DNA from: Lachnospiraceae bacterium
Lineage (GTDB): Bacteria > Bacillota > Clostridia > Lachnospirales > Lachnospiraceae
Direction of reading: 5' to 3'
NCBI GenBank assembly: GCA_051879255.1
Contig: JBJELR010000335.1
Coordinates: forward strand, 1 to 37,416
DNA length: 37,416 bases
The notes below the pieces were generated by a model. It saw only the letters and a list, made by a program, of their open reading frames with translations. It had not been told where the DNA came from and made no database searches. This document shows, in pieces, positions 1,510 through 28,681 of the stretch. The position numbers were made by a program, and so were the translations under genes. Numbering within the stretch: the first letter of the stretch is position 1; every line of letters begins with the position of its first letter.

Positions 1510-3317
1510 TGAAGCCAAAACGCATCAATCATAAAGTTCAAAACCGTTTGCTTCCTTTGCTGGTGGTGCCGGTGATCTTTCTGGTGGCCGGCCTGTGTTT
1601 TGATTTTTACTATCAATTGAATGATGATGTGGTGATTAAGGATATTCTGTCGGGAGCTTTTTCGGGGCTTCCTGACGGACATACCAATCAGATTCTTTAT
1701 CCCCTGGGGTGGCTGATTAGTCTGGGTTACAGAATTTTACCGGGGATCCCAATCTATCCCCTGTTTTTGTTAAGCTGCTATGGAATCTGCTTCTATCTTT
1801 TGGGCTATCGGAGTGTACAATATTACCAAAGGCTTTGGGGAAAGCTGCTGTTGCTTTTGCTGGAAGCAGGAATATTCCTGTCCCTGTTTTTGTGGGAGCT
1901 GGTATACGTACAGTATTCTGTTGTCTGTGGGCTTCTTGGAGCAACAGCCTGCTTCTGGTTCTATACCACCAAGCAGGATTTGTCCCCGGGAAGCTTCTGG
2001 CTTTCCAATCTGCCTGCTCTGCTGCTTATCTGGCTGGCTTTTCTGGTGCGTTCCGAAATGCTGCTTTTGCTTACCCCTTTTATTGCAGTAATGGGGATAT
2101 ACCACTGGTCAGAGGAGGTGTCCGGCGGTAAAGAGAATAATCATTTTCCGGGAAAGGACAGGCTTTGGAAAAGGCTATTCAGTAAAGAAAACTGTTGTAA
2201 GTATATTGCCTTCGTTCTGGTGACGGCTTTGGGCTGCCTGGCCTTCTGGGGACTGGATGAGGCGGCTTACACCGGGACAGAGTGGAGGCTGTATCGGCAG
2301 TTTTTTGATGCAAGAACCAGGGTATATGACTACACCTGGTATCCCTCATACGAAGAAAATCAGGCTTTCTATGAGAGTATAGGGGTAAGCAGTGAACAAT
2401 TTAGGCTGATTGACAGCTATAATTTTGGTTTAGATGAGGAAATTGATGCGAATACTTTGGTTAGGATAGCTTCCTTTGGAGAAAAGGCAAGCCGTCAGGG
2501 CAGTCTACCCACCCGGCTGAAAAATGGAATACGGGAAATGGTGCTTCGTATGACAGACCCGGGGGAGGGACCCTATAATTATTTTGTCCTGACGGCCTAT
2601 GGTATGGTTATTGCATTGGCCATTTTACAAAAAAAGAAAAGCTATATCTGGAAATTACTGCTGCTGGCTTTGGCCCATAGTATTTCCTGGATGTATCTGC
2701 TTTTGGCTGACCGGGTGGTAGCAAGAATTGCCCATCCCCTTTATATTTTGGAATTCTTATGCCTTTTGGCTCTTTTGGTAAAAGAATTTCGTGATCGGCC
2801 GCTGTGGAATGCCGAGCTCTATTATCGTCGGGGAGCATTGGCAGTATTTTTCCTGCTGGTCATCATCAGTGGGGCAGTGGTGTTTCCCAGGGTGGCTGAG
2901 GAACAGACCAGACGGCAGAGAGTAAATGAGCCAATGGAGGCCTTTCAGGCTTATGCCGCAAAGGAGGAAGAAAGCTATTATTATTTTGATGTTTATTCCA
3001 CCGTCTATTTTACAGAAAAGCTGTTTGCCCAAAACGGGGAAAAACGTAAGAATTATGATATTTTAGGCGGCTGGTTTAACCGTAGTCCCCTGCAAAAGGG
3101 GGTGGTTTGGGAGTATGCCAAAGAGGCAGGAATAACCATCAGTCAGGCCCTGCTTACCGATAATTTTTACTTTGTGGCGGAAAGACAAGGGGATATGAGT
3201 CCGGTGCTTCTTTGGTATGAGGCTGCTGAAGCTGCTGTGGAGGTAAAAGAGGTAACAGCCTTAGGCCGGGGAGAGAATCCCCTTGTGGTATATCAATTAA
3301 GAATAAATGAGGAATAG
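1509..3317 (+). CDS. Polytopic integral membrane protein (602 aa), family not recognised. Candidate GT-C-fold extracytoplasmic glycosyltransferase.
   Basis: ORF 1509..3317. The start overlaps the wecE stop (TAATG) and has AGGAGG 5 nt upstream. There are many hydrophobic segments. An acidic motif (QLNDDVV) follows the first TM directly, and a roughly 150-aa hydrophilic C-terminal domain follows the last. Confidence 0.55.
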   Translation: MKPKRINHKVQNRLLPLLVVPVIFLVAGLCFDFYYQLNDDVVIKDILSGAFSGLPDGHTNQILYPLGWLISLGYRILPGIPIYPLFLLSCYGICFYLLGYRSVQYYQRLWGKLLLLLLEAGIFLSLFLWELVYVQYSVVCGLLGATACFWFYTTKQDLSPGSFWLSNLPALLLIWLAFLVRSEMLLLLTPFIAVMGIYHWSEEVSGGKENNHFPGKDRLWKRLFSKENCCKYIAFVLVTALGCLAFWGLDEAAYTGTEWRLYRQFFDARTRVYDYTWYPSYEENQAFYESIGVSSEQFRLIDSYNFGLDEEIDANTLVRIASFGEKASRQGSLPTRLKNGIREMVLRMTDPGEGPYNYFVLTAYGMVIALAILQKKKSYIWKLLLLALAHSISWMYLLLADRVVARIAHPLYILEFLCLLALLVKEFRDRPLWNAELYYRRGALAVFFLLVIISGAVVFPRVAEEQTRRQRVNEPMEAFQAYAAKEEESYYYFDVYSTVYFTEKLFAQNGEKRKNYDILGGWFNRSPLQKGVVWEYAKEAGITISQALLTDNFYFVAERQGDMSPVLLWYEAAEAAVEVKEVTALGRGENPLVVYQLRINEE

Positions 3318-3321
3318 GTGT

Positions 3322-3894
3322 ATGTTCATACCGGAAAGTAAACGAATAGAAGGAAATCAGATCTATCTCAGACCCATCACCAGAGAGGATACCGATAAGA
3401 TCATTCAGTGGAGAAACAGTGATACGGTGAGACCCTTTTTCATTTATCAGGAGCCTTTTACCAGAGAGGGGCACTTAAACTGGTTGGAAAAAATGATTGA
3501 ATCCCAGAAAGGCTGTCAGTTTATTATCTGCTTGAAAGAGGCTGACAGGCCTATCGGCAGTACCTATCTAAGAGATTATGATCCGGTAAGCCGAAAAGCA
3601 GAATATGGAGTATTTATTGGAGAAAAAGAGCAGAAGGGGAAGGGAATCGGTACAGAAGCACTTAAGCTGACGATGGAATTTGCCTTTGATGAGCTTAAGC
3701 TCCATAAGGTATTTGCCCGGGCCTTCAGTGACAATCAGGCCTCTATTCATTCCTTTTTAAAGGGAGGCTTCCGGCAGGAGGCCTGCCTGAGGGATGAGGT
3801 TCTGGTTGCCGGAAGATATAGGGACATTATCCTGCTGGCCAGACTGAATCCGAAGGAAGGCCATCAGGCAAAGGATGAGAAAGAAAAGGATTGA
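3322..3894 (+). CDS. GNAT-family N-acetyltransferase (RimJ/RimL-like). Candidate amino-sugar N-acetyltransferase.
   Basis: ORF 3307..3894. It shows the GNAT core with acetyl-CoA loop EKEQKGKGIGTEALK and the pattern IYLRPIT..D...I..W. The ATG at 3322 has GAGGA 8 nt upstream, whereas 3307 lacks an RBS. Confidence 0.75.
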   Translation: MFIPESKRIEGNQIYLRPITREDTDKIIQWRNSDTVRPFFIYQEPFTREGHLNWLEKMIESQKGCQFIICLKEADRPIGSTYLRDYDPVSRKAEYGVFIGEKEQKGKGIGTEALKLTMEFAFDELKLHKVFARAFSDNQASIHSFLKGGFRQEACLRDEVLVAGRYRDIILLARLNPKEGHQAKDEKEKD

Positions 3895-3902
3895 AGATAT
3901 CC

Positions 3903-4880
3903 ATGAAGAAAAAAGTAAGCTTTGTTATTCCCTGTTATCATTCTTCACTTACCTTAAGGAAGGTGGTGGAAGAAGTTCAGGAAACCATGAAAAAACTGGA
4001 GCAATATTCCTATGAAATTATTCTGGTTAATGATTGTTCACCGGATACTACATTTTCGGTGATTCAGGAACTTTGCCGGGAAAATGAAAACATCTGCGGA
4101 GTCAATCTGGCAAAAAATTTTGGTCAGCATGGAGCCCTGATGGCAGGCTTCCATCAGGTGACCGGGGATATTTTGGTGTGTCTGGATGATGATGGACAGA
4201 CACCGGCGGATGAGGCAGGAAAGCTTCTGGAGAGACTGGAAGCAGGAGATGATGTGGTGTATGCCCGCTACCCCCATAAGCAGCATTCTCTCTTTCGTAA
4301 CTTTGGCAGCTTCATCAATGAAAAGATGGCTCAGTTTTTGCTGGGAAAACCGAAGGAGCTTTACGTTTCCAGCTACTTTGCGGCAAAACGCTTCGTGGTG
4401 GACGAAATGTTGAAGTATGAAAATGCCTACCCCTATGTTATTGGTCTGGTACTGCGAACCACAAAAAAAATTTCCAATGTGGAAGTTAATCATCGGCAGC
4501 GGGAGGTAGGAGAATCAGGCTACACCCTGACCAAGCTTCTGGGACTGTGGTTTAATGGGTTTACTGCTTTTAGCACTAAGCCTCTTCGGATTGCCACAGT
4601 GACCGGATTTTTATGTGCCATGGCCGGTTTTCTCTATGCACTTTATACCATTGTTAAAAAATTTGTTAATCCGGCAGTACCGGTGGGGTTCAGTTCTTTG
4701 ATGTCGGCAATCATGTTTATTGGTGGTATGCTGATGCTGATGCTGGGATTAATCGGTGAATATATTGGAAGAATGTACATTTGCATCAACAATGCCCCTC
4801 AGTTTGTCGTGCGGGAGCTGATTCCTGTTAAAGAAAAGAAGGAAGATGCAGAAGGCAAAAGGGAAACGACGGAAAAATAG
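3903..4880 (+). CDS. GT2 polyprenyl-phosphate glycosyltransferase of the GtrB/ArnC/CsbB type, with a C-terminal membrane anchor
   Basis: ORF 3891..4880 (TTG at 3891, ATG at 3903). GT-A motifs are VSFVIPCYHSS, VNDCSPD and CLDDDGQ (DxD). Two C-terminal TM helices (LRIATVTGFLCAMAGFLYALY and LMSAIMFIGGMLMLMLGLIGEYIGR) are typical of the GtrB/ArnC architecture. Confidence 0.8.
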   Translation: MKKKVSFVIPCYHSSLTLRKVVEEVQETMKKLEQYSYEIILVNDCSPDTTFSVIQELCRENENICGVNLAKNFGQHGALMAGFHQVTGDILVCLDDDGQTPADEAGKLLERLEAGDDVVYARYPHKQHSLFRNFGSFINEKMAQFLLGKPKELYVSSYFAAKRFVVDEMLKYENAYPYVIGLVLRTTKKISNVEVNHRQREVGESGYTLTKLLGLWFNGFTAFSTKPLRIATVTGFLCAMAGFLYALYTIVKKFVNPAVPVGFSSLMSAIMFIGGMLMLMLGLIGEYIGRMYICINNAPQFVVRELIPVKEKKEDAEGKRETTEK

Positions 4881-4903
4881 CAGGAAGGGCAAGCAGGATT
4901 TAT

Positions 4904-4961
4904 TTATTTATTTGAGCAATAGAACAGGCAAGGCCTGTTCTAAGCATGGGGATTAAAATGG
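4904..4961 (+). repeat. Copy 1 of a conserved 58-nt intergenic module: T-rich tract, TTGAGCA, perfect hairpin, RBS, ATG
   Basis: Direct comparison gives 53/58 identity to 27821-27878. The perfect palindrome TAGAACAGGC-AAG-GCCTGTTCTA lies at 4920-4942. GGGGA follows, then ATG at 4958. Confidence 0.9.
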
Positions 4962-6802
4962 ATAAGAAAAGAAGGGAAAAGTGGAAGAAAATAGAGCAGA
5001 ATGCGGTGGTCAGAGGCTGCTTTGGCATTCTGGCTTCTATGTCTATGTTTTCCTCATTAAGTACCACAGTAACAGAAGGCAGGGAGGCTGTAGTCTACTC
5101 GAATAGCTTTTTTTCGTTTTTTTTCGCCCTCCTTTGTGCAGTCTGCTTTTTGTTAGTGAAAAAGAAGACCCCAGAGGGGGATAGGAGGGGCTTTTGGGTA
5201 AGTCTGCTTTACAGCCTGGGAATTTCAGCCTGCCTGGTGGTGGGAAAGCAGTTGGAAACGGTGGAAAATATAAAAATAACAGATGTTGTTATTTGGATAA
5301 ACATATTGATATTGACCCTCTTTTTTCAGCCCTTTGTCCAATTTACCTGGAAATGGCTGGAAGAATCAGGGAAGGAAGGGAGTGCAGAAAAAGTAGGGAA
5401 ACAGGGCTGCTTTTTGGGTCAAAAGCTTTTCTGGAAAAATCTCTGTCTCTTACTGATTTGTTGGCTGCCGGTCTTTCTGGCCCTTTATCCGGGGGCCTTC
5501 GTTTATGATGCTGCCGATGAGTATGTGCAGGTAGCCACCAGAAGCTTTACCACTCATCACCCTCTCATTCATGTCCTGCTTTTGGGTGGTTTTGTGGCAG
5601 GAGGGAATAAATTCTTTGGCTCCTTTAATCTGGGAATTGCTGCCTATACCCTGTTTCAGATGCTAATCCTGGCGGCAGTATTCAGCTATACCATTCTCTG
5701 GCTAAAGAGAAGAATAAACCGTAAGTGGGTGGAATGGGCAGCACTTTTATTCTATGGGTTTTTCCCCGTAATTCCTATGTATGCAGTCTGCTCTGCAAAA
5801 GATGGTTTGTTTACCGGCGCAGTTCTTGTGGTAGTGCTTCAGATGCTGTCTCTTTTTGAAGAACCGGAAAGCTTTCTGGCAAAAAAGAGCAACTGGATTG
5901 CAAGTATTCTTGCAGCCGCCATTATGATGCTGCTAAGAAATAACGGATGTTATGCGTATTTCGTGTGGATTCCCCTGGCTATTTTGGGACTATCGGGAAG
6001 GAAAAAAAAGCTGTGTCTGCAAACTGCAGCTCTACTGCTTGGTTCGGCAGCAGTGTTTATGCTGATTTCAAAGGGCCTGGCCTGGGGGCTTGAAGCGGAT
6101 GACAGCGGCAGCCAGGAAATGATGACGGTACCGATTCAACAACTGGTACGAACCTATAACTATAGCCCGGAAAGCTACACAGAAGAAGAACAGGCGTTAC
6201 TTTTTGAGCTTATTCCGGAGAAGGAGATGGGAGCCTACAACCCAAGGATTTCCGACATAGTTAAAAGTAAATTTAATAATGAAAGCTTCAATGCGAATAA
6301 AGGAGAGTACCTGAAGCTTTGGGCTAAAATCGGCCTGCGTAAGCCCATGAGCTATATTAATGCCTGGCTGATGACCTCTTATGGCTTCTGGTATCCGGAT
6401 GCAGTAATCAATATTTATGGAGGAAATACGGTCTATAGCTTTACCTATGAAGACAGTTCCTATTTTGGCTTTGAAACAGAATATCCGGGAACCAGAGAAA
6501 GTAAGTTTCCCTGGCTGGAGGAGCAGTACAGGAGGCTGTCATTGGAGCTTTATCAGCAAAGACTTCCGGGGCTGTCCATGCTTTTTTCTCCCGGCTTTTT
6601 GTTCTGGGTATTCGCTTTTTGTCTATGCTTTCTGCTTTGGAAAAAGCAGGTAAAAAAGCTGGTTCCCCTGCTGCTGATTTTTCTGGTATGGATGACGTTT
6701 CTGCTGGGGCCTACTTATCTGGTGCGCTATGTGCTGATTCTCTGGTTTGCCCTGCCTGTAATTGTAAGTGAGATAAAAGTATGCTATACTGATTTGATAT
6801 GA
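4958..6802 (+). CDS. Large polytopic membrane protein (about 614 aa). Candidate GT-C-fold glycosyltransferase, possibly a DUF6020-like family.
   Basis: ORF 4946..6802. ATG 4958 is preferred because it occupies the same position as the start in repeat copy 2, with GGGGA 6 nt upstream. There are more than 10 hydrophobic segments. An acidic loop motif (YDAADEY) follows a TM, and a roughly 190-aa hydrophilic loop precedes the last TMs. Confidence 0.55.
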   Translation: MDKKRREKWKKIEQNAVVRGCFGILASMSMFSSLSTTVTEGREAVVYSNSFFSFFFALLCAVCFLLVKKKTPEGDRRGFWVSLLYSLGISACLVVGKQLETVENIKITDVVIWINILILTLFFQPFVQFTWKWLEESGKEGSAEKVGKQGCFLGQKLFWKNLCLLLICWLPVFLALYPGAFVYDAADEYVQVATRSFTTHHPLIHVLLLGGFVAGGNKFFGSFNLGIAAYTLFQMLILAAVFSYTILWLKRRINRKWVEWAALLFYGFFPVIPMYAVCSAKDGLFTGAVLVVVLQMLSLFEEPESFLAKKSNWIASILAAAIMMLLRNNGCYAYFVWIPLAILGLSGRKKKLCLQTAALLLGSAAVFMLISKGLAWGLEADDSGSQEMMTVPIQQLVRTYNYSPESYTEEEQALLFELIPEKEMGAYNPRISDIVKSKFNNESFNANKGEYLKLWAKIGLRKPMSYINAWLMTSYGFWYPDAVINIYGGNTVYSFTYEDSSYFGFETEYPGTRESKFPWLEEQYRRLSLELYQQRLPGLSMLFSPGFLFWVFAFCLCFLLWKKQVKKLVPLLLIFLVWMTFLLGPTYLVRYVLILWFALPVIVSEIKVCYTDLI

Positions 6803-6881
6803 TAAGATGAGGCGGTAATAAAAGCCGAATCATGCATCAATGTGGACAGGCAGGATAAGGATTAAGAAACGGGAAGAATCG

Positions 6882-9362
6882 ATGAATCAACGAATTAAAT
6901 TAAGCCGAGGAATTCAATATGTAATGGCAGCAGCGGCAGTCATACTGTTTTTGCTGTTCTGGCCCTTTGGGATAATTGAGAGCAGGTATACCGCTAAAAG
7001 TGATGAGGTGATTTTACAAAAATCGGACCCCATCAGTGTAGAGAATAATGGAACCCAGATGTTTATTGCCCAGGGGAGTAACCTGAAGGCGGTGGATCTT
7101 TATGTTGCCAATGATATGCGGGCAGAAACCATCACCTTTCGGCTTTACGACAGTGCCTATCAGCAGCTTTGGGAAACCTTTTATGTGGTAGATGCAGATA
7201 CAACATTCCCCGGATTTATCCGTATTCCTATTGAGATGGAAACGGTAGAGGGTTGGGAATATTATTATACCGTAGAGGGGCTTACCAGCGATTTGGAGCT
7301 GTATTACGAGGATACGGTCAGGTCAACCTCCTTTGCCAACGGAACCTATCTTTATGGAGGGGCAGAGATGTCGGGCATTAATCTGATTGCCCGCTATCGC
7401 TATACCACTCCCTTTTCCTGGTGGATGATTGTGATTTTCGGTCTGCTTCTGGGGACAGCAGCAATAACCCTGTGGAAGCTGACGGATAGGCTTTTTGCAG
7501 CAAAATGGGCAGATAAAAATAAGGAAATTACCGTACAGAAGCTTTTGCAATGGACCCTGGGGCCGCTTATCCTTCTGGCAATGCTGGCCGCTTTGCTGAC
7601 CGTTTTTCCGGGGCGGACTTTTGGCAGAGGCAAAGTGAACTATGGATTTTACTACCTGGGGATTATGCTTACGGCAGGAGTGCTGTTGTATGGAGTAAGT
7701 CATAAACGATTGGGGCAGGAGCCTTTAATCAACTTAAATAAGATAAAAAGCAGCTGGCCCAATTGGGCCATGTCTGTCTGCTTTGCAGGAGCGTTATGGT
7801 CCTGCTATGAATATATGAATGGGCTTTATGATATCCATCACAGTTATGCTACCTGCAGGCTGCTGGTCTGGTTTGCCCTGGCCACGATTTTCACCTTCAG
7901 GTTCAACAGGCAGGAGCTTTTTAAGGTATACAACCTGATTTATCTGGCAGCAGCCGGTGTAGGAGGCTATTTTTATGCAAAACCCTACCGGGGAGTGGAG
8001 GAGCTGGAGGAGCTTTACCGTCTGCAGGCCTATGTTCTGGTGGTCTGTGGATTTGCCCTGCTGCAGATGCTCATTGCCCTGGTGAAGACGATGGGGAAAA
8101 AAAGGCAGGCTGCAGCTTACTGGTATCTTCCTTATACAGGTGCGTTGGCTTTGTTTCTTGGGATGCTGGTCATTTTCCGCAATACCCGTACCTGGCCTGT
8201 TTTACTGGCAGTGGTTTTCGGCCTTTTTTATCTGCGGATGTGGATGTGGGAAAAGCGGGACAGCCTGCCGGAAATTTTTTGTAATGGAATCATCTTAAAC
8301 TTTCTCTATACGGTAGTCTACTGCCTTATGCATCGCCCTTATCTGCGGTTCAGACACAACCGTTACGGAATGACCTATCATACCGTTACCATGACCGGTT
8401 ATTATCTGGCTCTGGTGCTCTGTGCCATCATGGTGCGCCTGTTTGTGCAGTATAGGAAAAATGGGCGATGGCAGGATGCCTGGAAGGAATTGTGCCTTTT
8501 GGGAACGGGAAATGTATATCTGTTTTTAACTCTGTCCAGAACAGGCTATCTGGCAGCCTTTGTAATGGAAATGTTTATGATCATTTTTCTCTCTGCGCTG
8601 TGGGAAAGAAAGAAGCTAAAGGCTGTCTTTAAGGCGATAGGGCTTACCTTAGGGGTTAGTATACTGTTTTTTCCCATTGTGTTTACGGCTCAGAGAATTG
8701 TGCCCACTCTTTTCAATGACCCCATTTATTCGGAAATTGAGGTGTGGGAATATACGACACAAGAAAACACCCCCAGAGATTCAGAGCTTTATATTGATTT
8801 GGAAGCCTTTGTAAAAATCATGAAAAACAAGCTGTTTGGGATGAAAATGGAAAATATTTCCTTAAGCAGCATAAGAGATAAGCTGCAGCCGGTGTATTTA
8901 CAGTCCCAGGGAAGGCTTTTGGCCAGTGTTTCTCCCACAGAGGGGGAGGAAAGGGATTTTTCCAATGGCCGGATGGAGATTTTTCGGGAATACATTGGTC
9001 AGTGGAACATGACGGGACACGATGAGATGGGATTTCCCTTTCCCGATGGAAGTATCTCTACTCATGCCCATAATACCTATTTACAGGTAGCCCATGACCA
9101 TGGGGTAATTACAGGAGTTATTTTCCTGCTTTTTGGTATTTACACCTTCCTTCTTGCGGTTTACCGCTATGTCAGGGAAAGAGAAAAGCAGCCTTATCTG
9201 ACCTTGATTATTGCCGTCACCATAGCCTTTGGAGCAGCGGGAATGGTGGAGTGGATTTTTCATCCTTGTAATCCCTTTGGCTTTTCCCTAATGGTGGTGA
9301 TTGCCCCTCTGCTGTTTAAACCGGGCAGACCACAGGTCATAAATGGAGGAAAACATGAATAA
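6882..9362 (+). CDS. O-antigen ligase/polymerase-like (Wzy_C domain) membrane protein with an N-terminal extracytoplasmic domain (about 826 aa)
   Basis: ORF 6840..9362. ATG 6882 (MNQRIKLSRG..., then TM1) is preferred. A Wzy_C-type signature sits near the C-terminus: GRMEIFREYI...STHAHNTYLQVAHDHGVITGVIFLLFG. A domain of about 170 aa without TM segments lies between TM1 and TM2. Confidence 0.7.
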   Translation: MNQRIKLSRGIQYVMAAAAVILFLLFWPFGIIESRYTAKSDEVILQKSDPISVENNGTQMFIAQGSNLKAVDLYVANDMRAETITFRLYDSAYQQLWETFYVVDADTTFPGFIRIPIEMETVEGWEYYYTVEGLTSDLELYYEDTVRSTSFANGTYLYGGAEMSGINLIARYRYTTPFSWWMIVIFGLLLGTAAITLWKLTDRLFAAKWADKNKEITVQKLLQWTLGPLILLAMLAALLTVFPGRTFGRGKVNYGFYYLGIMLTAGVLLYGVSHKRLGQEPLINLNKIKSSWPNWAMSVCFAGALWSCYEYMNGLYDIHHSYATCRLLVWFALATIFTFRFNRQELFKVYNLIYLAAAGVGGYFYAKPYRGVEELEELYRLQAYVLVVCGFALLQMLIALVKTMGKKRQAAAYWYLPYTGALALFLGMLVIFRNTRTWPVLLAVVFGLFYLRMWMWEKRDSLPEIFCNGIILNFLYTVVYCLMHRPYLRFRHNRYGMTYHTVTMTGYYLALVLCAIMVRLFVQYRKNGRWQDAWKELCLLGTGNVYLFLTLSRTGYLAAFVMEMFMIIFLSALWERKKLKAVFKAIGLTLGVSILFFPIVFTAQRIVPTLFNDPIYSEIEVWEYTTQENTPRDSELYIDLEAFVKIMKNKLFGMKMENISLSSIRDKLQPVYLQSQGRLLASVSPTEGEERDFSNGRMEIFREYIGQWNMTGHDEMGFPFPDGSISTHAHNTYLQVAHDHGVITGVIFLLFGIYTFLLAVYRYVREREKQPYLTLIIAVTIAFGAAGMVEWIFHPCNPFGFSLMVVIAPLLFKPGRPQVINGGKHE

Positions 9363-11229
9363 GAATACCTTTAATCGTCAGCTTTTTTCCCGCAGAGCAG
9401 GGCTGATGCTTTATGATGTAGCCAGTGTACTGGCAGCCAGCTTTCTGGCTATTTCCATGCGTTATGAATTTAACTATGACATGATTCCCTCCTACTTTTT
9501 GGAGACTATTGCCCGCTTTCTGCCCTTTAATGTTGTGATTACACTGGCTGTTTTCTATGTTTTTCGCCTCTATCACAGTTTATGGGCATTTGCGGGAGAA
9601 AATGAGTTACAGAATGTGGTGGTGGCCAGCTTTCTTGCTTCTGCAGTTAACGGATTAGGATTATTTGCAGTAAGGGTACAGCCCAAGGCAGTACCCAGCA
9701 GCTACTATTTTATGTATACCTTTTTGCTGATTACCTTTACCTTTATCAGCCGATTTTCCTATCGCTTTCTGCGCAACAAAAAGCACAAAATACAAAATAA
9801 GAAAAACACCACAAGGGTAATGATTATTGGTGCCGGTGAAGCCGGAAATGCTATTATCAAGGAAATCGTCAGCAGTAACTATTCCACCATGACCATAGGC
9901 TGCATCATCGATGACGATGCGAAAAAATGGGGAAACTTTATCCAGGGCATCCGGGTGGCAGGAGGCCGGGATAAAATTTTGGAATGCGTGGATTTGTATA
10001 GCATAGATGAAATTTTTATTGCCATTCCCTCTGCCTCCAGAAAAGCCATTCGGGAAATTCTGGAAATCTGTAAGGAGACAGAATGTAAGCTGAAAGCCCT
10101 TCCGGGAATCTACCAGTTGGTTAATGGGGAAGTCAATGTAAGTCAGTTAAGAGATGTGGAGGTAGAGGACCTTCTGGGCAGAGACCCCATCAAGGTGGAC
10201 TTAAACTCTATTTTGCAGTATGTCAGCCAAAAAACGGTACTGGTAACCGGGGGAGGAGGCTCCATTGGCAGTGAGCTGTGTCGCCAGATTGCCCAGCACA
10301 AGCCCAAAAAGCTGATTCTGGTGGATATCTATGAAAACAGCGCATATGATGTACAGCAGGAATTACAGTATAAACACCCGGAACTGGATTTGGTGGTGTT
10401 AATTGCTTCTGTGCGCAATACCAATCGAATGAACTCTATTTTTGAAACCTACAGGCCGGATATCGTCTACCATGCGGCAGCCCATAAGCATGTGCCGCTA
10501 ATGGAAGCCAGTCCCAATGAAGCAGTCAAAAATAACGTGTTCGGCACCTGGAAAACGGCCCAGGCAGCGGCCTATTACGGAACCGGAAAGTTTGTGATGA
10601 TCAGTACCGACAAGGCCGTTAATCCTACCAATATCATGGGAGCCAGCAAACGGATTTGTGAAATGATTATTCAGACCTTTAATCGCCATTATGATACAGA
10701 ATTTGTGGCAGTACGTTTCGGTAATGTGCTTGGCAGCAACGGCAGTGTTATTCCTCTGTTTAAAAAGCAGATTCAGCAGGGAGGGCCGGTAACGGTAACG
10801 CATCCCGATATTATTCGTTACTTTATGACCATACCGGAGGCGGTTTCTTTGGTGCTTCAGGCGGGAGCCTATGCCAGAGGCGGAGAGATTTTCGTTTTGG
10901 ATATGGGTGAGCCGGTGAAGATTCTGGATTTGGCCAAAAATTTGATTCGTCTGTCCGGCTATAAGGTGGGCGAAGATATTCAGATTGAGTTTACCGGTCT
11001 TCGTCCCGGGGAAAAATTATATGAGGAGCTTCTAATGGACGAGGAGGGTCTGCAGGATACGGATAATAAAATGATCCATATCGGAAAGCCCATAGAACTG
11101 GATGAGATGGCCTTTTTTGCCCAACTGAAACGGCTGAAGGAGGAGTCCAAAAACGAGAGTAAAGACATTCGTCAACTGATTAAAGAAATTGTGCCTACCT
11201 ATCAGATACGGGAGGAACAGGAAGCATAG
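9355..11229 (+). CDS. Membrane-anchored nucleotide-sugar 4,6-dehydratase of the CapD/PglF/WbpM/EpsC family, probably acting on UDP-GlcNAc
   Basis: ORF 9343..11229. ATG 9355 has GGAGGA 4 nt upstream. It has four N-terminal TM segments and two Rossmann motifs (VMIIGAGEAGNAI and VLVTGGGGSIGSEL). The family block ISTDKAVNPTNIMGASKR is present. Confidence 0.85.
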   Translation: MNKNTFNRQLFSRRAGLMLYDVASVLAASFLAISMRYEFNYDMIPSYFLETIARFLPFNVVITLAVFYVFRLYHSLWAFAGENELQNVVVASFLASAVNGLGLFAVRVQPKAVPSSYYFMYTFLLITFTFISRFSYRFLRNKKHKIQNKKNTTRVMIIGAGEAGNAIIKEIVSSNYSTMTIGCIIDDDAKKWGNFIQGIRVAGGRDKILECVDLYSIDEIFIAIPSASRKAIREILEICKETECKLKALPGIYQLVNGEVNVSQLRDVEVEDLLGRDPIKVDLNSILQYVSQKTVLVTGGGGSIGSELCRQIAQHKPKKLILVDIYENSAYDVQQELQYKHPELDLVVLIASVRNTNRMNSIFETYRPDIVYHAAAHKHVPLMEASPNEAVKNNVFGTWKTAQAAAYYGTGKFVMISTDKAVNPTNIMGASKRICEMIIQTFNRHYDTEFVAVRFGNVLGSNGSVIPLFKKQIQQGGPVTVTHPDIIRYFMTIPEAVSLVLQAGAYARGGEIFVLDMGEPVKILDLAKNLIRLSGYKVGEDIQIEFTGLRPGEKLYEELLMDEEGLQDTDNKMIHIGKPIELDEMAFFAQLKRLKEESKNESKDIRQLIKEIVPTYQIREEQEA

Positions 11230-11293
11230 TTAAAGAGTATCGCAGACCAGGCTTGCGGTATAGATAGAGAGTAGATTCAGAATGAGGATTATT

Positions 11294-12427
11294 ATGGAAA
11301 AAAAACGGATTTATCTTTCTTCTCCCACCATCCATGGGGAGGAACAGCAATTTGTACAGGAGGCCTTTGATACCAATTGGGTAGCCCCCTTAGGCCCTAA
11401 CGTGAATCATCTGGAGGAAGAAATGTGTGCTTATACCGGGGCAGGGGCTGCCGCCGCCTTAAGCGCAGGTACGGCTGCTATCCATTTAAGTCTTAAGCTG
11501 CTTGATTTACAGCCCCAGGATGTGGTGTTTGTGTCGGATTTAACCTTTTCTGCCACCTGTAACCCAATCTGCTATGAAAAGGCCTCCCCTGTGTTTATTG
11601 ACAGTGAGCGGGACACCTGGAATATGTGTCCCAAGGCATTGGAGAAGGCCTTCAGCCTTTATCCCAACCCCAAGGCGGTAATTTGTGTGCATCTTTATGG
11701 TACGCCGGCTAAGCTGGAGGAAATTCAGGCCATCTGCAGCGCCCATCAGGTTCCCTTGATTGAGGATGCGGCAGAATCCTTAAGTGCCCTCTATCTGGGA
11801 AAACAGACCGGTACCTTTGGAAAATTTGGAATCTATTCCTTTAACGGAAATAAAATCATTACCAGCTCCGGCGGAGGTATGCTGGTATCCGAGGATGAGG
11901 AGGCCATTGAAAGAGCCAGATTTTTGTCCACCCAGGCCAGAGACCAGGCCAGACATTATCAGCACTCCAGGATTGGGTATAATTACCGGATGTCCAATAT
12001 TGTGGCCGGAATCGCAAGGGGGCAGCTTATCCATCTGGAGGAGCATAAAGCACTGAAAAAGAAAATCTATGAGCAGTACAAAAAGGCCTTTTCGGATATT
12101 TCGGAAATTGCCATGAATCCCATGAATCCTAAGGGGGAGGCCAATAACTGGCTGTCCTGTCTGACCATTGAAGAAGGTTCAAGGGTAACGCCCAATCAGA
12201 TCATGGATGCTTTAGAGGCAGAAAATATGGAATCCAGACCCATATGGAAGCCTATGCATCTGCAGCCGGTATTTGAGAAATATGACTTTGTTTCTCTGGA
12301 GCCTAGAGATAAGGCCATCGGAGAGGATATTTTTAACCGGGGACTTTGTCTGCCCAGCGATATTAAGAATACGGCGGAAGATATGGAGAGAATTATCGGC
12401 ATCGTCAGAGCCTGCTTTGGAAAGTAG
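11294..12427 (+). CDS. DegT-family PLP aminotransferase, PglE/EpsN/WcfR type (UDP-4-keto-6-deoxy-HexNAc C4 transaminase)
   Basis: ORF 11282..12427. The MEKKRIYLSSP start resembles EpsN-type N-termini. Motifs seen are NWVAPLGP and GTAAIHL, plus the PLP-lysine block YSFNGNKIITSSGGGMLVS. Confidence 0.8.
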   Translation: MEKKRIYLSSPTIHGEEQQFVQEAFDTNWVAPLGPNVNHLEEEMCAYTGAGAAAALSAGTAAIHLSLKLLDLQPQDVVFVSDLTFSATCNPICYEKASPVFIDSERDTWNMCPKALEKAFSLYPNPKAVICVHLYGTPAKLEEIQAICSAHQVPLIEDAAESLSALYLGKQTGTFGKFGIYSFNGNKIITSSGGGMLVSEDEEAIERARFLSTQARDQARHYQHSRIGYNYRMSNIVAGIARGQLIHLEEHKALKKKIYEQYKKAFSDISEIAMNPMNPKGEANNWLSCLTIEEGSRVTPNQIMDALEAENMESRPIWKPMHLQPVFEKYDFVSLEPRDKAIGEDIFNRGLCLPSDIKNTAEDMERIIGIVRACFGK

Positions 12428-18641: not shown

Positions 18642-19844
18642 ATGGCTTTACCGGTAATTATTCTCCATGTAGTGGGAAGATTGGACAGAGGCGGTGCGGA
18701 AAGCAGAATTATGGACTTGTACCGGCATATGGATCGAACCAAAGTACAGTTCTATTTTGCCCAGCATACCACAGATCGCTGTGCCTTTGCAGAAGAAATT
18801 GAAGCCCTGGGAGGAAGGATTTTTCATCTGCCCAGATTCAATGTGGCTAATATCCGCCTATATCAAAAGGCCTGGAAGAACCTGTTTCTTTCCCACCCGG
18901 AAATCAAGATGGTGCAGGGGCACATGACCAGTACGGCAGCAATTTATCTTCCCCTGGCAAAAAAGGCGGGGGTCGAAGTTACCATTGCCCATGCCCGCAG
19001 TGCGGGAGTAGACCCCGGGCCTAAGGGGTGGCTGACCCGGCTTATGCGAAGAAATCTATGGAAGAAATGTGACTACTGCTTTGCCTGCTCCAGACTGGCA
19101 GGGGAAGCAGTTTTTGGAAAACAGGCTCTGGAACAGGGAAGGGTAGAGTTTATTCCCAATGCCATAGAGGTGGAGAAGTTTGCCTTTAATGGGGAAATTC
19201 GAAGTAAGCTGCGCCAGGAACTGGGACTGGAGGGAACCTTTGTCCTGGGACACGTGGGGCGTTTTAATGCGGTAAAGAATCATGATTACTTATTGGATAT
19301 TCTGGAAGCGGGAATAGCTTTTGAGCGTGAAAAGAGACTGCCCAAGCTGATACTGCTTTTACTGGGTGAAGGAGAGCTTGAGGAAGCTATCCGTCAGAAG
19401 GCTCTTGATAAGGGGATTTCCTCCAGAGTGTATTTTCTGGGAAATCAAAGCCAGGTATATCGCTACTATCAGGCCATGGATTTTTTTCTTTTGCCTTCCT
19501 TTTATGAGGGCTTGCCGGGTACTGCCATAGAGGCACAGGCCAGCAGCCTGCCGGGAATCCTGTCGGATACCGTTACTAAGGAGGCTGTCATTACCGATTT
19601 GCTTAAGCAGCGATCCATTAAGGAAGCAGCCGCAAACTGGGCAGAAGCGATTGCAGAGTATGAGGCAGGCAAAGCAGATGGTAACCTGGAGGAAAGTCTG
19701 GCTAAAGCAAGACAAGGCGATACCGACTATGTGGCACAGGTAAAAGCAGCCGGCTATGAGGTAAAGGAGCAGGCAGCACGACTGCAGAAGTTTTATCTGG
19801 AAGGGACGAGGGAGAATGTGCGGAATCTGTGGATTTTACAGTAA
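18642..19844 (+). CDS. GT4 glycosyltransferase (paralog 2) with a C-terminal extension of about 70 aa
   Basis: ORF 18642..19844. The N-terminus is collinear with the upstream GT4 (ILHVVGRLDRGGAESRIMDLYRHMDRTKVQF). The EX7E block is YEGLPGTAIEAQASSLPGILS. The tail overlaps the next gene by 29 nt. Confidence 0.8.
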   Translation: MALPVIILHVVGRLDRGGAESRIMDLYRHMDRTKVQFYFAQHTTDRCAFAEEIEALGGRIFHLPRFNVANIRLYQKAWKNLFLSHPEIKMVQGHMTSTAAIYLPLAKKAGVEVTIAHARSAGVDPGPKGWLTRLMRRNLWKKCDYCFACSRLAGEAVFGKQALEQGRVEFIPNAIEVEKFAFNGEIRSKLRQELGLEGTFVLGHVGRFNAVKNHDYLLDILEAGIAFEREKRLPKLILLLLGEGELEEAIRQKALDKGISSRVYFLGNQSQVYRYYQAMDFFLLPSFYEGLPGTAIEAQASSLPGILSDTVTKEAVITDLLKQRSIKEAAANWAEAIAEYEAGKADGNLEESLAKARQGDTDYVAQVKAAGYEVKEQAARLQKFYLEGTRENVRNLWILQ

Positions 19845-21705
19845 ACTGAATATTACGACAGAGCACCTTACCGCAATGAACGATACCTTGCAGCATAGAG
19901 GACCGGATGACAAGGGAGTGGAAATCTATCCGGCCGGAGGGGGGTATCGCCTTGGAATGGCACATAGACGTCTGGCGATACTGGATCTGTCACCCCGGGG
20001 TCATCAGCCTATGGTTTCTGCAGATGGCAGAGTCGTTATTGTATTTAATGGAGAAATCTATAACTTTAAGGAAATCCGCAGGGAGCTGACGGATTATCCC
20101 TTTCATTCGGACAGTGATACCGAGGTGATACTGGCGGCCTACCTGAAATGGGGAATCCACTGTGTAGAACGATTCAATGGAATGTTTGCCTTTGGGCTTT
20201 ATGACAGACAGGAGGAAAGCTTATATCTGGTTAGGGACAGAATCGGAAAGAAACCCCTGTATTATTGGAAAAACAATGGAGGGCTGGTGTTCGCCTCAGA
20301 ACTGAAGCCCATAATGAATTGTCCCGGCTTTCGGGGTAAGGTCAGACAGGAGCTGCTTTGCCGTTACCTGACGGAGGGCTATCTTACCTCCCCTGATACG
20401 ATTTTTGAAGGGGTGTATCAGTTAAAGCCCGGCAGTATCCTTAAAGTTCAACAGACAGAAGTGAAGGAATGGAAATATTGGGATATCCTTGAGCGCTATG
20501 AATGCCTGAAGGATACCATGGCAGGCAGCGTTGAAGAAGCAGAAGAAAGATTGGATGAGATTCTCAACCGGGCAGTAAAAAGACGAATGATTTCTGATGT
20601 TCCTCTGGGGACCTTTTTAAGCGGAGGCTATGATTCCTCTCTCATTACTGCCATTGCCCAGGCAAACAGCAGTAAGCCGGTTAAGACCTTCTCCATTGGC
20701 TTTCATGAGCCGGAGCGTAACGAGGCCGTTTATGCCAAAAGGGTGGCCTCCTATCTGGGAACGGATCACAGGGAGCTGTATCTTACAGAAAATGATCTGT
20801 TTGCTATGGTGGAAGATTTGACGGATTATTACGATGAGCCTTTTGCAGACAGTTCCCAGATTCCCTCTATGCTGGTAGCCGGGCTGGCCAGAAAAGAGGT
20901 GACGGTGGCCTTATCAGGGGACGGAGGAGATGAGTTTTTCTGCGGCTACAACAACTATCAAATGCTTAGGAGGATGCAGAAGCTGGATTCTCTGGGGAAG
21001 CTTACCTATGATTTTTGTCAGCTTCCGGGAATAAAACAAATGGGAATGCTTCAACGGCTTCCCCACAAGGTTCAGATTGTGGCCGCCAACAGGCACCCGC
21101 AGTATAAGGTGCAGCCCTTTGATTTACTGCAAAGCCAGATGGCAGCAGGATTGCTGAAAAGTCAGCAGTGGGATTATCGCTTCCCGGAGGAAAAAAGATA
21201 TTCCGAGAACAACTGGCAGATTCGCCGGATGCTTTTGGATATGGAAACTTATTTGCCGGGAGATATTTTGGTGAAGGTTGACCGGGCTTCCATGAAATAT
21301 TCCCTGGAGACCCGCTGCCCCATTTTGGACAAGGAAGTAATGGAATACTCCTTTACTCTGCCTCATGAATTTAAAATGGAAGCAGGGAACAAGAAGCGGA
21401 TTCTTAAGCAGTTGGCCTACAGGTATATTCCCAAGGAGCTTTTGGAGCGCCCCAAGGTGGGATTTTCAGTGCCCCTTAAGAAGTGGCTGAGAGGCCCTTT
21501 GCAGAAGCAGCTTTTGGATTACACCAGTACAGAATTTCTGCGGGATCAGGATATTTTCTACCCGGAAAAGACACAGAAGTTTATTGCGGACTATCTGGGA
21601 AAGAAGGAGCAGGGAGCAGGGATAGATTATTCCCGTTTTGTTTGGGCATACTTTGTTTTTCAAAAATGGTATGAAAGGTATTGCAAGTGGAAAGGAAAAA
21701 GATAA
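19816..21705 (+). CDS. Asparagine synthase B-like glutamine amidotransferase. In this context it is likely a WbpS-like uronic-acid amidotransferase.
   Basis: ORF 19816..21705. The protein begins MCGI (Ntn nucleophile Cys2). The PP-loop is FLSGGYDSS, and the block SGDGGDEFFCGY is present. Confidence 0.8.
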   Translation: MCGICGFYSKLNITTEHLTAMNDTLQHRGPDDKGVEIYPAGGGYRLGMAHRRLAILDLSPRGHQPMVSADGRVVIVFNGEIYNFKEIRRELTDYPFHSDSDTEVILAAYLKWGIHCVERFNGMFAFGLYDRQEESLYLVRDRIGKKPLYYWKNNGGLVFASELKPIMNCPGFRGKVRQELLCRYLTEGYLTSPDTIFEGVYQLKPGSILKVQQTEVKEWKYWDILERYECLKDTMAGSVEEAEERLDEILNRAVKRRMISDVPLGTFLSGGYDSSLITAIAQANSSKPVKTFSIGFHEPERNEAVYAKRVASYLGTDHRELYLTENDLFAMVEDLTDYYDEPFADSSQIPSMLVAGLARKEVTVALSGDGGDEFFCGYNNYQMLRRMQKLDSLGKLTYDFCQLPGIKQMGMLQRLPHKVQIVAANRHPQYKVQPFDLLQSQMAAGLLKSQQWDYRFPEEKRYSENNWQIRRMLLDMETYLPGDILVKVDRASMKYSLETRCPILDKEVMEYSFTLPHEFKMEAGNKKRILKQLAYRYIPKELLERPKVGFSVPLKKWLRGPLQKQLLDYTSTEFLRDQDIFYPEKTQKFIADYLGKKEQGAGIDYSRFVWAYFVFQKWYERYCKWKGKR

Positions 21706-22829: not shown

Positions 22830-22869
22830 ACAGGCAAAGAAGCTGTTTGGAAGGATTATGGAGGTTAAT

Positions 22870-26654: not shown

Positions 26655-26754
26655 GCAGGGATTTTAGTACACTATTGGTATATATGCCTTGTGGCAGTAT
26701 CAGTAGTGTATTTTCGTTTTAAGAACCATAAAATTGATGAAGAAAGGGCAGCAG

Positions 26755-27798
26755 ATGATTGGAACCAAGCTATTAAAGGGACAGGGGCTGGGAAATGCTC
26801 TGTTCTGCTATGTTACCACCAGATGTCTTGCAAAACGGCAGGAAACGGAGTTTGCCATTCTGGGGAAAGAGGTCCTGGAAGGCATTGCCGGAAAAAATAA
26901 TGGGCTGTATTTTATGAATCTGGATTTTGGGCTGCCGGCAAAAGAAGAAGAATTCCCCCGGGTCTATCATGAGCGGGAGGACAGGCTTTTTTTAGGAAAC
27001 TCCCGTCACGACTGCCGTATAGGCTGCTACGTTACCGGAGCAGACCGGGAACTGTTTAAGGTGGAGGAAGGGACCTTAATCTATGGGAATATGCAGGCTG
27101 AGGAATACCTTTTGCCCTATCGGGAGGAAATAAAGCAGTGGCTTCAGGTAAAGCCGGAATATGAAAGTGATGAATTTACCCGGGATAACCTATGTGTGAT
27201 TAATCTTCGGGGAGGGGAATACCAGGGAAGCCCGGAGCTGTTTCTTGGCCGCAGGTACTGGTTAAAGGGTATGGCCCATATGCGCTTACTGCGGCCGGAC
27301 ATGGAGTTTATGGTGGTAACGGACGATGTGGAGGCAGCAAGAAGGGTGCTGCCGGAGGTACCGGCCTTTCATTTTACTTTGGATAAGGATTATGTAACCA
27401 TAAAAAATGCCCGTTATCTGCTTTTGTCCAATTCCTCCTTTGCTTTTTTTCCTGCACTGACCAGTGAAACGGTGAAGGAAATCATTGCTCCCAAATATTG
27501 GGCCAGACATAATGTGTCCAATGGCTACTGGGCGTCGGAGCAAAACATCTATTCCGGCTGGAAATACATGGACAGACGGGGAAAATTGTATACTGCCGAG
27601 GAATGCCGCCAGGAATTGGAAAAATATAAAAAGAAAAGCTTAAGATACAAAAGAGTGAACCAAAAGCCACAAGGCCTTGTGATGAAGCTGATGAGACTGG
27701 AAAGTGAACTGTTATATCGAGCTTCCCGGATAGTCCGGATGGCCGGCGGGGTAAAGCGGCGTATAAAAAGAATATTTACGCTTCGGAATGAGGATTAG
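26755..27798 (+). CDS. Divergent GT11-like (fucosyltransferase-superfamily) glycosyltransferase with a basic C-terminal tail
   Basis: ORF 26734..27798 (TTG at 26734). ATG 26755 has AAAGGG 6 nt upstream. The motifs are degenerate counterparts of GT11: KGQGLGNALFCY, INLRGGEY and LLSNSSFAFFPAL. Confidence 0.55.
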   Translation: MIGTKLLKGQGLGNALFCYVTTRCLAKRQETEFAILGKEVLEGIAGKNNGLYFMNLDFGLPAKEEEFPRVYHEREDRLFLGNSRHDCRIGCYVTGADRELFKVEEGTLIYGNMQAEEYLLPYREEIKQWLQVKPEYESDEFTRDNLCVINLRGGEYQGSPELFLGRRYWLKGMAHMRLLRPDMEFMVVTDDVEAARRVLPEVPAFHFTLDKDYVTIKNARYLLLSNSSFAFFPALTSETVKEIIAPKYWARHNVSNGYWASEQNIYSGWKYMDRRGKLYTAEECRQELEKYKKKSLRYKRVNQKPQGLVMKLMRLESELLYRASRIVRMAGGVKRRIKRIFTLRNED

Positions 27799-27799
27799 T

Positions 27800-27830
27800 G
27801 TGAAAATTAAAAATTTTCACTTATTTATTT
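27800..27830 (+). terminator. Candidate weak intrinsic terminator: an AT-rich hairpin followed by a T-rich tract
   Basis: GTGAAAATT-AAA-AATTTTCAC (27800-27820) is a perfect 9-bp stem. TTATTTATTT follows it. The element begins 2 nt after the stop at 27798. The stem has only 2 GC pairs, so termination may be partial. Confidence 0.3.
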
Positions 27831-27878
27831 GAGCAGTAGAACAGGCAAGGCCTGTTCTATGCAAGGGGATTAGTATGG
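27821..27878 (+). repeat. Copy 2 of the conserved 58-nt intergenic module
   Basis: It is 53/58 identical to 4904-4961. The palindrome TAGAACAGGC-AAG-GCCTGTTCTA lies at 27837-27859. GGGGA follows, then ATG at 27875. Confidence 0.9.
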
Positions 27879-28681
27879 AAAGAATTAACGGGCGGCTGCA
27901 GCTTCCCATGGTAACCTTGTGTGCCATGACCAGTGTGCTGGTGCCGGAAACCATTAAGGCCATGGAATACAGCATGAGGGAAATTGATTTTGGGGCAGCG
28001 GTGATTATCACCCATAAGAAACCGAAACGGCTTCCTCAGGAGATTACCTATAAGCATATTGATGAACTGACGGATATTGACTGTTTTAACTACAAAACGG
28101 TGTATGAAATGGGAGATTATATTGATACAGAGTTTGCCCTGCTGGTACACTATGACGGCTTTGTGGTGAATCCCGATATGTGGAGAGATGAATTTCTGGA
28201 CTATGATTATATTGGTTCTCCCTGGCCCCTGCCAAAGGAAGGGGACACCACCACCTACCGGGACATCTACGGAAATCTGTGCCGGGTGGGGAACAGCGTA
28301 TCCATCCGCAGTAAGCGGCTGATGGATTTTCCCAGGCAGGCAGAAATTCCCTGGACCCCTCAAAAGGGTTGGTTTAATGAGGATGGCTTTATCTGCTGTC
28401 GCAACAAGCATCTGTTTGAGGAGGCGGGAATGCGGTTTGCTCCTCTGGAGCTGGCCATCTATTTCGGCCATGAAAACATGATACCGGAGATTGAAGGTAA
28501 GGGAATTCGGCCCTTTGTTTTTCATAAATGGATGGGCACCAATGCTAAGTACCCCGACTTTCGTCCTAAAAAACCCTTAAAAAAGCTGTGGACAAAAACC
28601 AAGATTTTTTTGTGGAAGCTGCTGCATGGCAAAGAGGAGCAGACCGACACAGCAAAAAAGAGGGAAGACAAGCAGGAGTGA
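27875..28681 (+). CDS. Hypothetical protein, possibly DUF5672-like (a putative glycosyltransferase-like family)
   Basis: ORF 27875..28681. The block LLVHYDGFVVNPDMWRDEFLDYDYIGSPWP resembles what I recall of DUF5672 proteins. The C-terminal tail is lysine-rich. The family assignment is from memory only. Confidence 0.45.
   Translation: MERINGRLQLPMVTLCAMTSVLVPETIKAMEYSMREIDFGAAVIITHKKPKRLPQEITYKHIDELTDIDCFNYKTVYEMGDYIDTEFALLVHYDGFVVNPDMWRDEFLDYDYIGSPWPLPKEGDTTTYRDIYGNLCRVGNSVSIRSKRLMDFPRQAEIPWTPQKGWFNEDGFICCRNKHLFEEAGMRFAPLELAIYFGHENMIPEIEGKGIRPFVFHKWMGTNAKYPDFRPKKPLKKLWTKTKIFLWKLLHGKEEQTDTAKKREDKQE

Follow-up and report, generated by a model that had tools for sequence, protein, structure and literature searches.

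A modular hairpin-bearing intergenic repeat abutting start codons in a narrow group of Lachnospiraceae

The two similar 58-nt leaders found in the window (the whole 37,416-nt stretch of DNA that was analysed, which is a single long plus-strand polysaccharide cluster) are copies of a modular intergenic repeat that is present in a narrow group of Lachnospiraceae and is not specific to polysaccharide clusters. Comparison of the copies shows that the second of the two hairpins in the unit, HP2, is conserved as a structure and not as a sequence.

The repeat unit in the window and in related genomes

Read directly, the two leaders (4904-4961 and 27821-27878) align without gaps and are identical at 53 of 58 positions, in agreement with the original prediction, and a repeat finder lengthens the pair to 64 nt (4899-4962 and 27816-27879, 89% identity, family D3). 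The 23-nt palindrome TAGAACAGGC-AAG-GCCTGTTCTA has no mismatch in either copy (4920-4942 and 27837-27859), with a chance expectation of zero matches, even at three mismatches (100 shuffles). Similarity between the copies stops at the ATGGA of both start codons, and the genes that follow are unrelated (a DUF6020 membrane protein and a DUF5672 protein), which rules out the remnant of a gene duplication, as had been argued. The description of a cis module at a constant spacing from the RBS and ATG also stands, with HP2 ending 15 nt before the ATG in nearly all copies, as does the absence of a U-run 3' of HP2 in the window copies, where no terminator was called. Promoter and terminator scans called no sigma-70 promoter or terminator around either copy. 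What the earlier reading of the window lacked was an AT-rich hairpin at 27800-27820, which belongs to the same unit in copy 2, a decayed third copy, and the multi-copy status of the repeat in other genomes. The features are as follows.

4899..4919, plus strand: copy 1, U-rich linker ending in GAGCAA, which aligns to the linker columns of all copies
4920..4942, plus strand: copy 1, HP2, TAGAACAGGC-AAG-GCCTGTTCTA, 10 bp with a 3-nt loop and a GCA/UGC extension
4943..4957, plus strand: copy 1, 3' signature AGCATGGGGATTAAA with the Shine-Dalgarno sequence (SD) GGGGA (4948-4952)
4958..6802, plus strand: DUF6020 membrane-protein gene behind copy 1
11238..11296, plus strand: decayed third copy, with the hairpin TATCGCAGAC-CAG-GCTTGCGGTATA at 11238-11262
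11282-11293, plus strand: signature ATGAGGATTATT of the decayed third copy, with the DegT start codon at 11294
27778..27799, plus strand: left of copy 2, remnant of the 3' end of a second repeat, the A-unit (ACGCTTCGGAATGAGGATTAG), common to L012, L014 and L015
27800..27820, plus strand: copy 2, HP1, GTGAAAATT-AAA-AATTTTCAC, 9 bp, AT-rich, then a U-rich run; -6.7 kcal/mol
27821..27836, plus strand: copy 2, linker TTATTTATTTGAGCAG
27837..27859, plus strand: copy 2, HP2, identical to HP2 of copy 1
27860..27874, plus strand: copy 2, 3' signature TGCAAGGGGATTAGT with the SD GGGGA (27865-27869)
27875..28681, plus strand: DUF5672 gene behind copy 2

A full unit is about 90 nt long and consists, in order, of HP1 (GTGAAAATT-AAA-AATTTTCAC, AT-rich and with a U-rich run after it), TTATTTATTT, GAGCA(A/G), HP2 (a stem of 10-11 bp), TGCATGGGGATTAnn and the ATG, with stops in all three frames ahead of HP2. 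Copy 2 is a full-length unit. Copy 1 is 5'-truncated and has no HP1, the sequence upstream of it (4881-4898) not aligning to HP1. To the left of copy 2, the A-unit remnant now codes for the last six codons and the stop of the upstream ORF, the orthologue of which (L025) ends about four codons earlier. The decayed third copy is a weak covariance-model match (11228-11299, 19.2 bits, E 0.06-0.35), and its stem is almost the same as that of the upstream unit in L033. Hairpins of different sequence stand just before the SD of the orthologous DegT genes in the window (11238-11262) and in a syntenic cluster, L030 (14190-14216), and their comparison suggests that a hairpin is maintained at this junction even where the repeat is unrecognisable.

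The position of the signature affects the annotation of start codons. The true start of the DUF6020 gene is 4958, because a 98% homologue (P0121) has 614 amino acids; the start at 4946 given by the ORF finder corresponds to an ATG that lies in frame within the module signature of copy 1. The DUF5672 start codon is native to its gene, with MER/MEY..LQLP kept in the orthologues. The signature ATGGGGATTAnnATG sets an in-frame ATG 12 nt before the real start at 4946 and 11282 in the window, at 5161 and 7048 in L014 and at 5318 in L015, and ORF and gene callers add a false MGI(x) N-terminus because of the in-frame ATGGGGATT.

Two further observations concern the window itself. At 26667-26721, between a GT2-GT11 gene and the next ORF, lies a long stable stem-loop followed by UUUUCGUUUU (-32 kcal/mol for the region, z -4). 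This stem-loop probably serves as an intrinsic terminator within the cluster, although a simple terminator scan did not call it, and the gene after it probably starts at about 26766 (ATGATTGGAACC) and not at the TTG at 26734. There are also two AsnB-type asparagine-synthase paralogues, at 19816-21705 and 22858-24783, which share a 120-nt stretch of 70% identity (repeat D1).

The palindrome recurs beyond the window. When the stem, with a free loop, was scanned in 185,579 species genomes, 14 loci were obtained, 12 of which lie in three Lachnospiraceae MAGs, on 4, 5 and 3 contigs, and have shared flanks. The other two have no shared flanks and were treated as unrelated, and L005, L007, L016, L017 and L020 were discarded as unrelated or chance matches. 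Copies with other stems came from a metagenome scan in which the flanks served as anchors and the stem was free, and a covariance model built from 17 copies found more of these. All copies are sense-oriented and directly 5' of start codons, and the gap between HP2 and the ATG is 15 nt (14 or 16 in two copies) in 18 of the 19 listed hairpin-bearing copies.

The genes behind the copies include those for a spermidine synthase (speE), an arginine/lysine-type decarboxylase (speA), a PP2C phosphatase, a MiaB-like radical-SAM enzyme, ModC, an ABC permease, an RnfC/Nuo51-like protein, a C39-like peptidase, a WYL regulator, a HAD hydrolase and several membrane proteins. Copies per genome look low, amounting to a handful, and their presence differs between close relatives; a tolerated selfish element therefore fits these data as well as a useful one. 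Assembly contigs break in or beside the unit (L029; L004, L012 and L013), as is expected of a multi-copy repeat. No Rfam family covers the module at its gathering score or at E<=5, and the sole Rfam overlap is a csRNA match on the opposite strand (E=1). No copies were found in viral contigs (two patterns) or, by blastn, in plasmids and phages.

HP2 pairing and covariation

The subfamilies of the unit carry different stems within constant flanks. The flank-anchored scan yielded TATCATAAGT/ACTTGTGATA and TATCACAAAC/GCTTGCGATA, and the covariance model yielded TATCGCAAGC/GCTTGCGATA and TATCACAAGC/GCTTGTGATA before speA in two related species, with the flanks GAGCA(A/G) and TGCATGGGGATT being more constant than the stem. 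The folding energy of HP2 ranges from -11 to -18.7 kcal/mol across copies, and that of the window HP2 is about -18.7 kcal/mol, including the GCA/UGC extension.

A search for compensatory substitutions in HP2 and its extension was positive: across 21 aligned cores, 94.2% of the positions are paired and 5 of 13 pairs have changed on both sides. The covariation is 0.283, as compared with 0.126 in shuffled alignments, and none of 500 shuffles reach it; this value rests on few subfamilies, perhaps 4-6 independent events, with the V1 copies having been gathered by a pattern in which the stem was fixed, and a DNA palindrome would co-vary just as an RNA hairpin does. Sliding the pairing partners, as a control, lowers the pairing of HP2 to 27-39%. 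Copies at orthologous positions in the speA leader differ by a double change from A:U to G:C, and in HP1 pairing is kept via compensated one-base indels and one change from G:C to A:U. The orthologous pairs L002/L022, L003/L019, L012/L015 and window/L029 are 98-99.5% identical, which is too close for a test of selection.

The wobble pairs in HP2 favour neither strand, there being 7 G.U and 9 A.C (an A.C corresponds to a G.U on the other strand), and the hairpin could therefore matter as DNA. Copies that abut the ATG have 12-13 Watson-Crick pairs of a possible 13, versus 9-10 in the displaced upstream copies.

Occupied sites, empty sites and the Shine-Dalgarno sequence of the unit

As in mobile repeats, multiple dispersed copies are found together with empty orthologous sites; insertion is lineage-specific, and the units are gained and lost rapidly. 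The DUF5672 orthologues (77-82% identity) have either a 15-nt spacer, TAG-gagaattagaacaat-ATGGAA, or one of 135 nt that lacks the unit. In the syntenic cluster L030 (DUF6020 74% identical), the site of copy 1 is an 11-nt spacer without hairpins, GAGGATTGA-ATGGGGATTAT-ATGGACAAG. This spacer, ATGGGGATTAT (L030 7815-7825), is the 3' signature of the unit standing alone, which may either have been left behind by a unit since lost or have been there beforehand as a target. The copy-1 unit is kept in a 98% identical strain, whose contig starts inside it. The spacer between speA and speE is about 410 nt long in L014, where it holds two tandem A-units of about 110 nt and a full hairpin unit, versus 11-53 nt in six relatives (SpeE 88-96% identical). 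The speA leader is empty in L032, L039 and L040, contains tandem units in L033 and L034 and has a decayed version in L014; tandem units are also seen in L010.

Several of these loci have additional features. The L014 speA leader comprises, in order, an SpF59/ldcC RNA motif (RF02440, 70 bits; 7569-7619, minus strand), located in the long leader of the speA-like decarboxylase, a terminator-like hairpin and the repeat units. Clostridiales-1 RNA (RF01699) was detected in L006 (1-119, 78.6 bits) and, truncated and below threshold, in L014 (5490-5600, 43 bits), where it adjoins the repeat-rich speA-speE spacer and is antisense to the operon. L033 and L034, which are two assemblies of the same organism, both contain at 3126-7651 a type I restriction-modification locus in which an integrase is flanked by opposed hsdS genes, two in number; the integrase segment is inverted between them, and this looks like a phase-variable specificity switch.

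The A-unit is a second structured repeat of about 110 nt (GATTTGTGCCGAAGCGTCACAAATCC...GCAAACGCTTCGGAATGGRGATTAG) with an internal 9-nt complement, CCGAAGCGT / ACGCTTCGG. It is found in L014 (5214-5461, minus strand, in tandem), L012 (whole), L015 (5194-5259, internally deleted) and the window (27778-27798), has no Rfam match and, like the hairpin unit, ends in ATGRGGATTA.

The position of the unit relative to the SD of the target gene is informative. In L003 and L001, a normal SD (GGTGGAG and AAGAGGG, respectively) comes after the upstream stop, and the unit begins next. Because the SD of the target gene is left upstream in this way, units arrive between the SD and the start codon, and because the native SD is stranded, the GGGGA of the unit serves as the working SD. 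Across the roughly 410 kb examined, the SD form GGGGATT is nearly confined to copies of the unit, which makes the signature a property of the unit rather than a general feature of these genomes. A solitary HP2 without linker or signature occurs between modB and modC in L009 (2637-2659, minus strand), downstream of a Moco riboswitch. The modB stop forms the first three bases of this HP2, the modC SD (GGAGG) lies upstream and the ATG follows 8 nt after the hairpin; since the hairpin sits between the modC SD and ATG, its folding would bring the two together.

The ends of the unit are not those of a classical MITE. By eye, the 17 aligned copies have no terminal inverted repeats, the ends GTGAAAATT... 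and ...ATGGGGATTA not being reverse complements, and no consistent target-site duplication, the left flank being a variable purine-rich SD-like run. This flank matches the right-hand GGGGATTA in some copies only (9/10 in L002, 5/10 in L012). The presence of ATGRGGATTA in both unit types, and alone at the empty L030 site, hints at a site-specific or 3'-end-primed (rolling-circle or retro-type) mechanism that targets start-codon junctions. It is tentatively proposed, with doubt outweighing confidence, that the unit is a mobile leader cassette of a previously undescribed kind, sense-oriented and lacking both terminal inverted repeats and target-site duplications, which integrates precisely between SD and start codon, swaps in its own hairpin and SD, and can be stacked in tandem.

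Readings of the unit and its consequences

The reading that fits the anatomy best, which was the first of the functions suggested in the original prediction and has a chance of being correct that may be put at about even, is that the unit is a co-transcribed portable leader, combining a processing or stability boundary with a self-contained translation-initiation region. HP1 and its U-run would cap the upstream cistron, either as a weak terminator or as a block to 3'-exonucleases. The single-stranded, AU-rich linker, whose final G lies 5-6 nt before HP2, resembles the sites cleaved by RNase Y- or E/G-type enzymes. HP2, then at the 5' edge of the downstream message and with the SD 5 nt after it, would block 5'-exonucleases and keep upstream sequence from interfering with the SD and start codon. 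The downstream gene would thus gain a standardised, autonomous translation-initiation region, and its stability would be uncoupled from that of the upstream gene.

Comparable arrangements exist in other Firmicutes. In Staphylococcus aureus, a hairpin located about 6 nt 3' of the cut determines RNase Y cleavage of saePQRS, the Bacillus subtilis cggR-gapA transcript is processed between its cistrons, the cip-cel operon of Clostridium cellulolyticum undergoes 'selective RNA processing and stabilisation', and 5'-terminal hairpins protect Firmicute mRNAs from RNase J; 5' stabilisers include those of ermC and aprE and the cryIIIA STAB-SD. The unit resembles these systems in its AU-rich single strand, the stable hairpin within about 6 nt, the strong SD and the long operon. 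They are, however, single-locus elements, whereas the unit is a repeated and apparently transferable cassette with a putative cleavage site. Against the leader and boundary reading are the lack of strand bias in the wobble pairs and the poor quality of HP1 as a terminator: it is followed by UUAUUUAUUU, yet has only 2 G:C pairs (-6.7 kcal/mol), and it is missing from copy 1. HP1 might still act as a weak terminator. Although the stem of HP2 is good, the sequence after it is UGCAUGGGG, and HP2 does not qualify as an intrinsic terminator.

The chief rival, which is quite possible if on balance doubtful, is a selfish or neutral small mobile repeat (MITE- or REP-like) without host function, in which the hairpins are DNA recognition structures for a trans-acting transposase or recombinase. 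The frame stops and the SD would then be carried only since insertions lacking them would kill the target operon. Such an origin is favoured by the presence and absence of the unit at orthologous sites in relatives whose SpeE is 88-96% identical, by the occupation of different loci in each genome, by the occurrence of tandem, nested and 5'-truncated units, by the mosaic with an A-unit that shares the ATGRGGATTA ending, by the unbiased wobble pairs and by the breaking of assemblies at the unit. It is harder to reconcile with the lack of terminal inverted repeats and of a consistent target-site duplication, with the absence of a transposase near any locus examined and of copies in the viral contigs, phages and plasmids searched, with the strictly sense orientation and exact ATG spacing, or with the better pairing of ATG-proximal copies than of displaced ones. 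A translational control element would make the downstream genes a post-transcriptional regulon, governed by a mini-ORF, by sequestration of the SD by the U-rich linker or by an RNA-binding protein on the flanks and hairpin. In the mini-ORF variant, the stranded native SD and the GTG of the unit drive MKIKNFHLFI*, whose translation modulates HP1/HP2. In about 9 of 15 full copies, the left edge does have an SD-like purine run 5-9 nt before a GTG or TTG, but the mini-ORF varies in frame and length (3-12 codons) and its start codon is lost in L002, L014 and L018. The flanks GAGCA(A/G) and TGCATGGGGATT are steadier than the stem and the MFE fold draws a weak helix between the U-rich linker and the SD; this helix, however, gains only about 0.4 kcal/mol over the two hairpins, the SD lies outside HP2, and the genes behind the copies have no functional coherence and are not the same in close relatives. 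Control of this sort is unlikely.

Two other functions, both raised by the original prediction, have lost ground. That the 23-bp perfect palindrome is the DNA operator of a dimeric transcription factor is very unlikely, because the half-sites vary by subfamily and no promoter-like site is near. Within the same flanks, the subfamily palindromes (TAGAACAGGC, TATCGCAAGC, TATCATAAGT) are quite different, their half-sites differing at 3-4 of 10 positions. An inverted repeat that is perfect in double-stranded DNA would be kept by symmetric changes too, and the wobble counts are unbiased between strands, but the copies lie within operons between cistrons and in a long 5' UTR downstream of a riboswitch-like leader, and 10-bp arms with a 3-nt central spacer suit a hairpin better than typical operators. 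Recruitment of a LoaP-like NusG paralogue, or of another processive antitermination system of polysaccharide clusters, might be read from the two or three copies in one long polysaccharide cluster and from the position of copy 2, about 1.1 kb past the probable internal terminator region. It is nevertheless extremely unlikely, because most copies precede genes unrelated to polysaccharides and the syntenic cluster L030 works without the unit. In addition, the copies lie between cistrons right at the SD, the first gene has no unit in its leader, the stem sequence is not kept across subfamilies, and no NusG/KOW-type protein is encoded in L030 or among the ORFs of the window, for which the absence of a LoaP-type factor had been noted correctly. 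The leader hairpins of LoaP, EAR and JUMPstart-ops are likewise conserved short elements inside polysaccharide clusters; the unit differs in not being cluster-specific, in having no cognate factor in the window, in its intercistronic position at the SD and in its variable stem. An integron attC or other recombination cassette site was also rejected, given a perfect stem without bulges, no integrase in the window and a position 5' of genes.

In kind, the unit is akin to ERIC, Correia, REP/BIME and the pneumococcal BOX/RUP repeats, which are small transcribed intergenic repeats that alter the fate of mRNAs, but it is a member of none of these families. It lacks the MITE features examined (terminal inverted repeats and target-site duplications) and the placement of REPs, and it has no Rfam match. 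ERIC/IRU elements of enterobacteria and the Correia elements (CREE/NEMIS) of Neisseria are small, dispersed, co-transcribed intergenic hairpin repeats that alter the mRNA processing, stability or translation of their neighbours. Both are found in Proteobacteria, are polymorphic in presence between strains, have terminal inverted repeats, occur in both orientations and are targets of RNase III/E; Correia elements also have TA target duplications. The unit is similarly a dispersed intergenic hairpin repeat with presence/absence polymorphism, but it has neither terminal inverted repeats nor target-site duplications, is strictly sense and start-codon-fused, carries its own SD and is unrelated in sequence.

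REPs are located mostly after stops or between convergent genes, in either orientation and in hundreds of copies, have a GTAG 5' tetranucleotide and an associated RAYT gene, and are known to affect segmental mRNA stability. The unit shares with REP/BIME elements a short extragenic palindrome and mosaic modules (A-unit and hairpin unit), but its placement is not that of REPs, the copies being sense and 5' of start codons. GTAG is present at the 5' side of the palindrome only in the GAGCAG-TAG variants (w2, L004, L006 and L013), with the others having CAATAG or CAGTAT. The pneumococcal BOX/RUP/SPRITE repeats are modular (boxA-B-C-like) Firmicute elements that often lie just upstream of genes and can change their expression; BOX supplies no SD and keeps no fixed distance from the ATG. 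The unit is also small, modular, upstream of genes and found in Firmicutes, but differs in its unrelated sequence, its SD and its fixed spacing. What is unusual in the unit is the strict sense orientation, the exact fusion to the start codon, the built-in SD, the stacking at one junction and the 3' signature common to two unit types.

The unit breaks metagenome assemblies, and the direct copies in the window, which are 22.9 kb apart, are substrates for rearranging the glycan cluster. It also provides a compact and testable model for the tolerance of small repeats within Firmicute operons. If the portable leader reading is true, the unit would re-set the translation initiation and the mRNA segment stability of any gene behind it, including genes in long surface-polysaccharide operons, where relative dosage matters, and these gut Lachnospiraceae would carry a natural, transferable 'insulated RBS' part.
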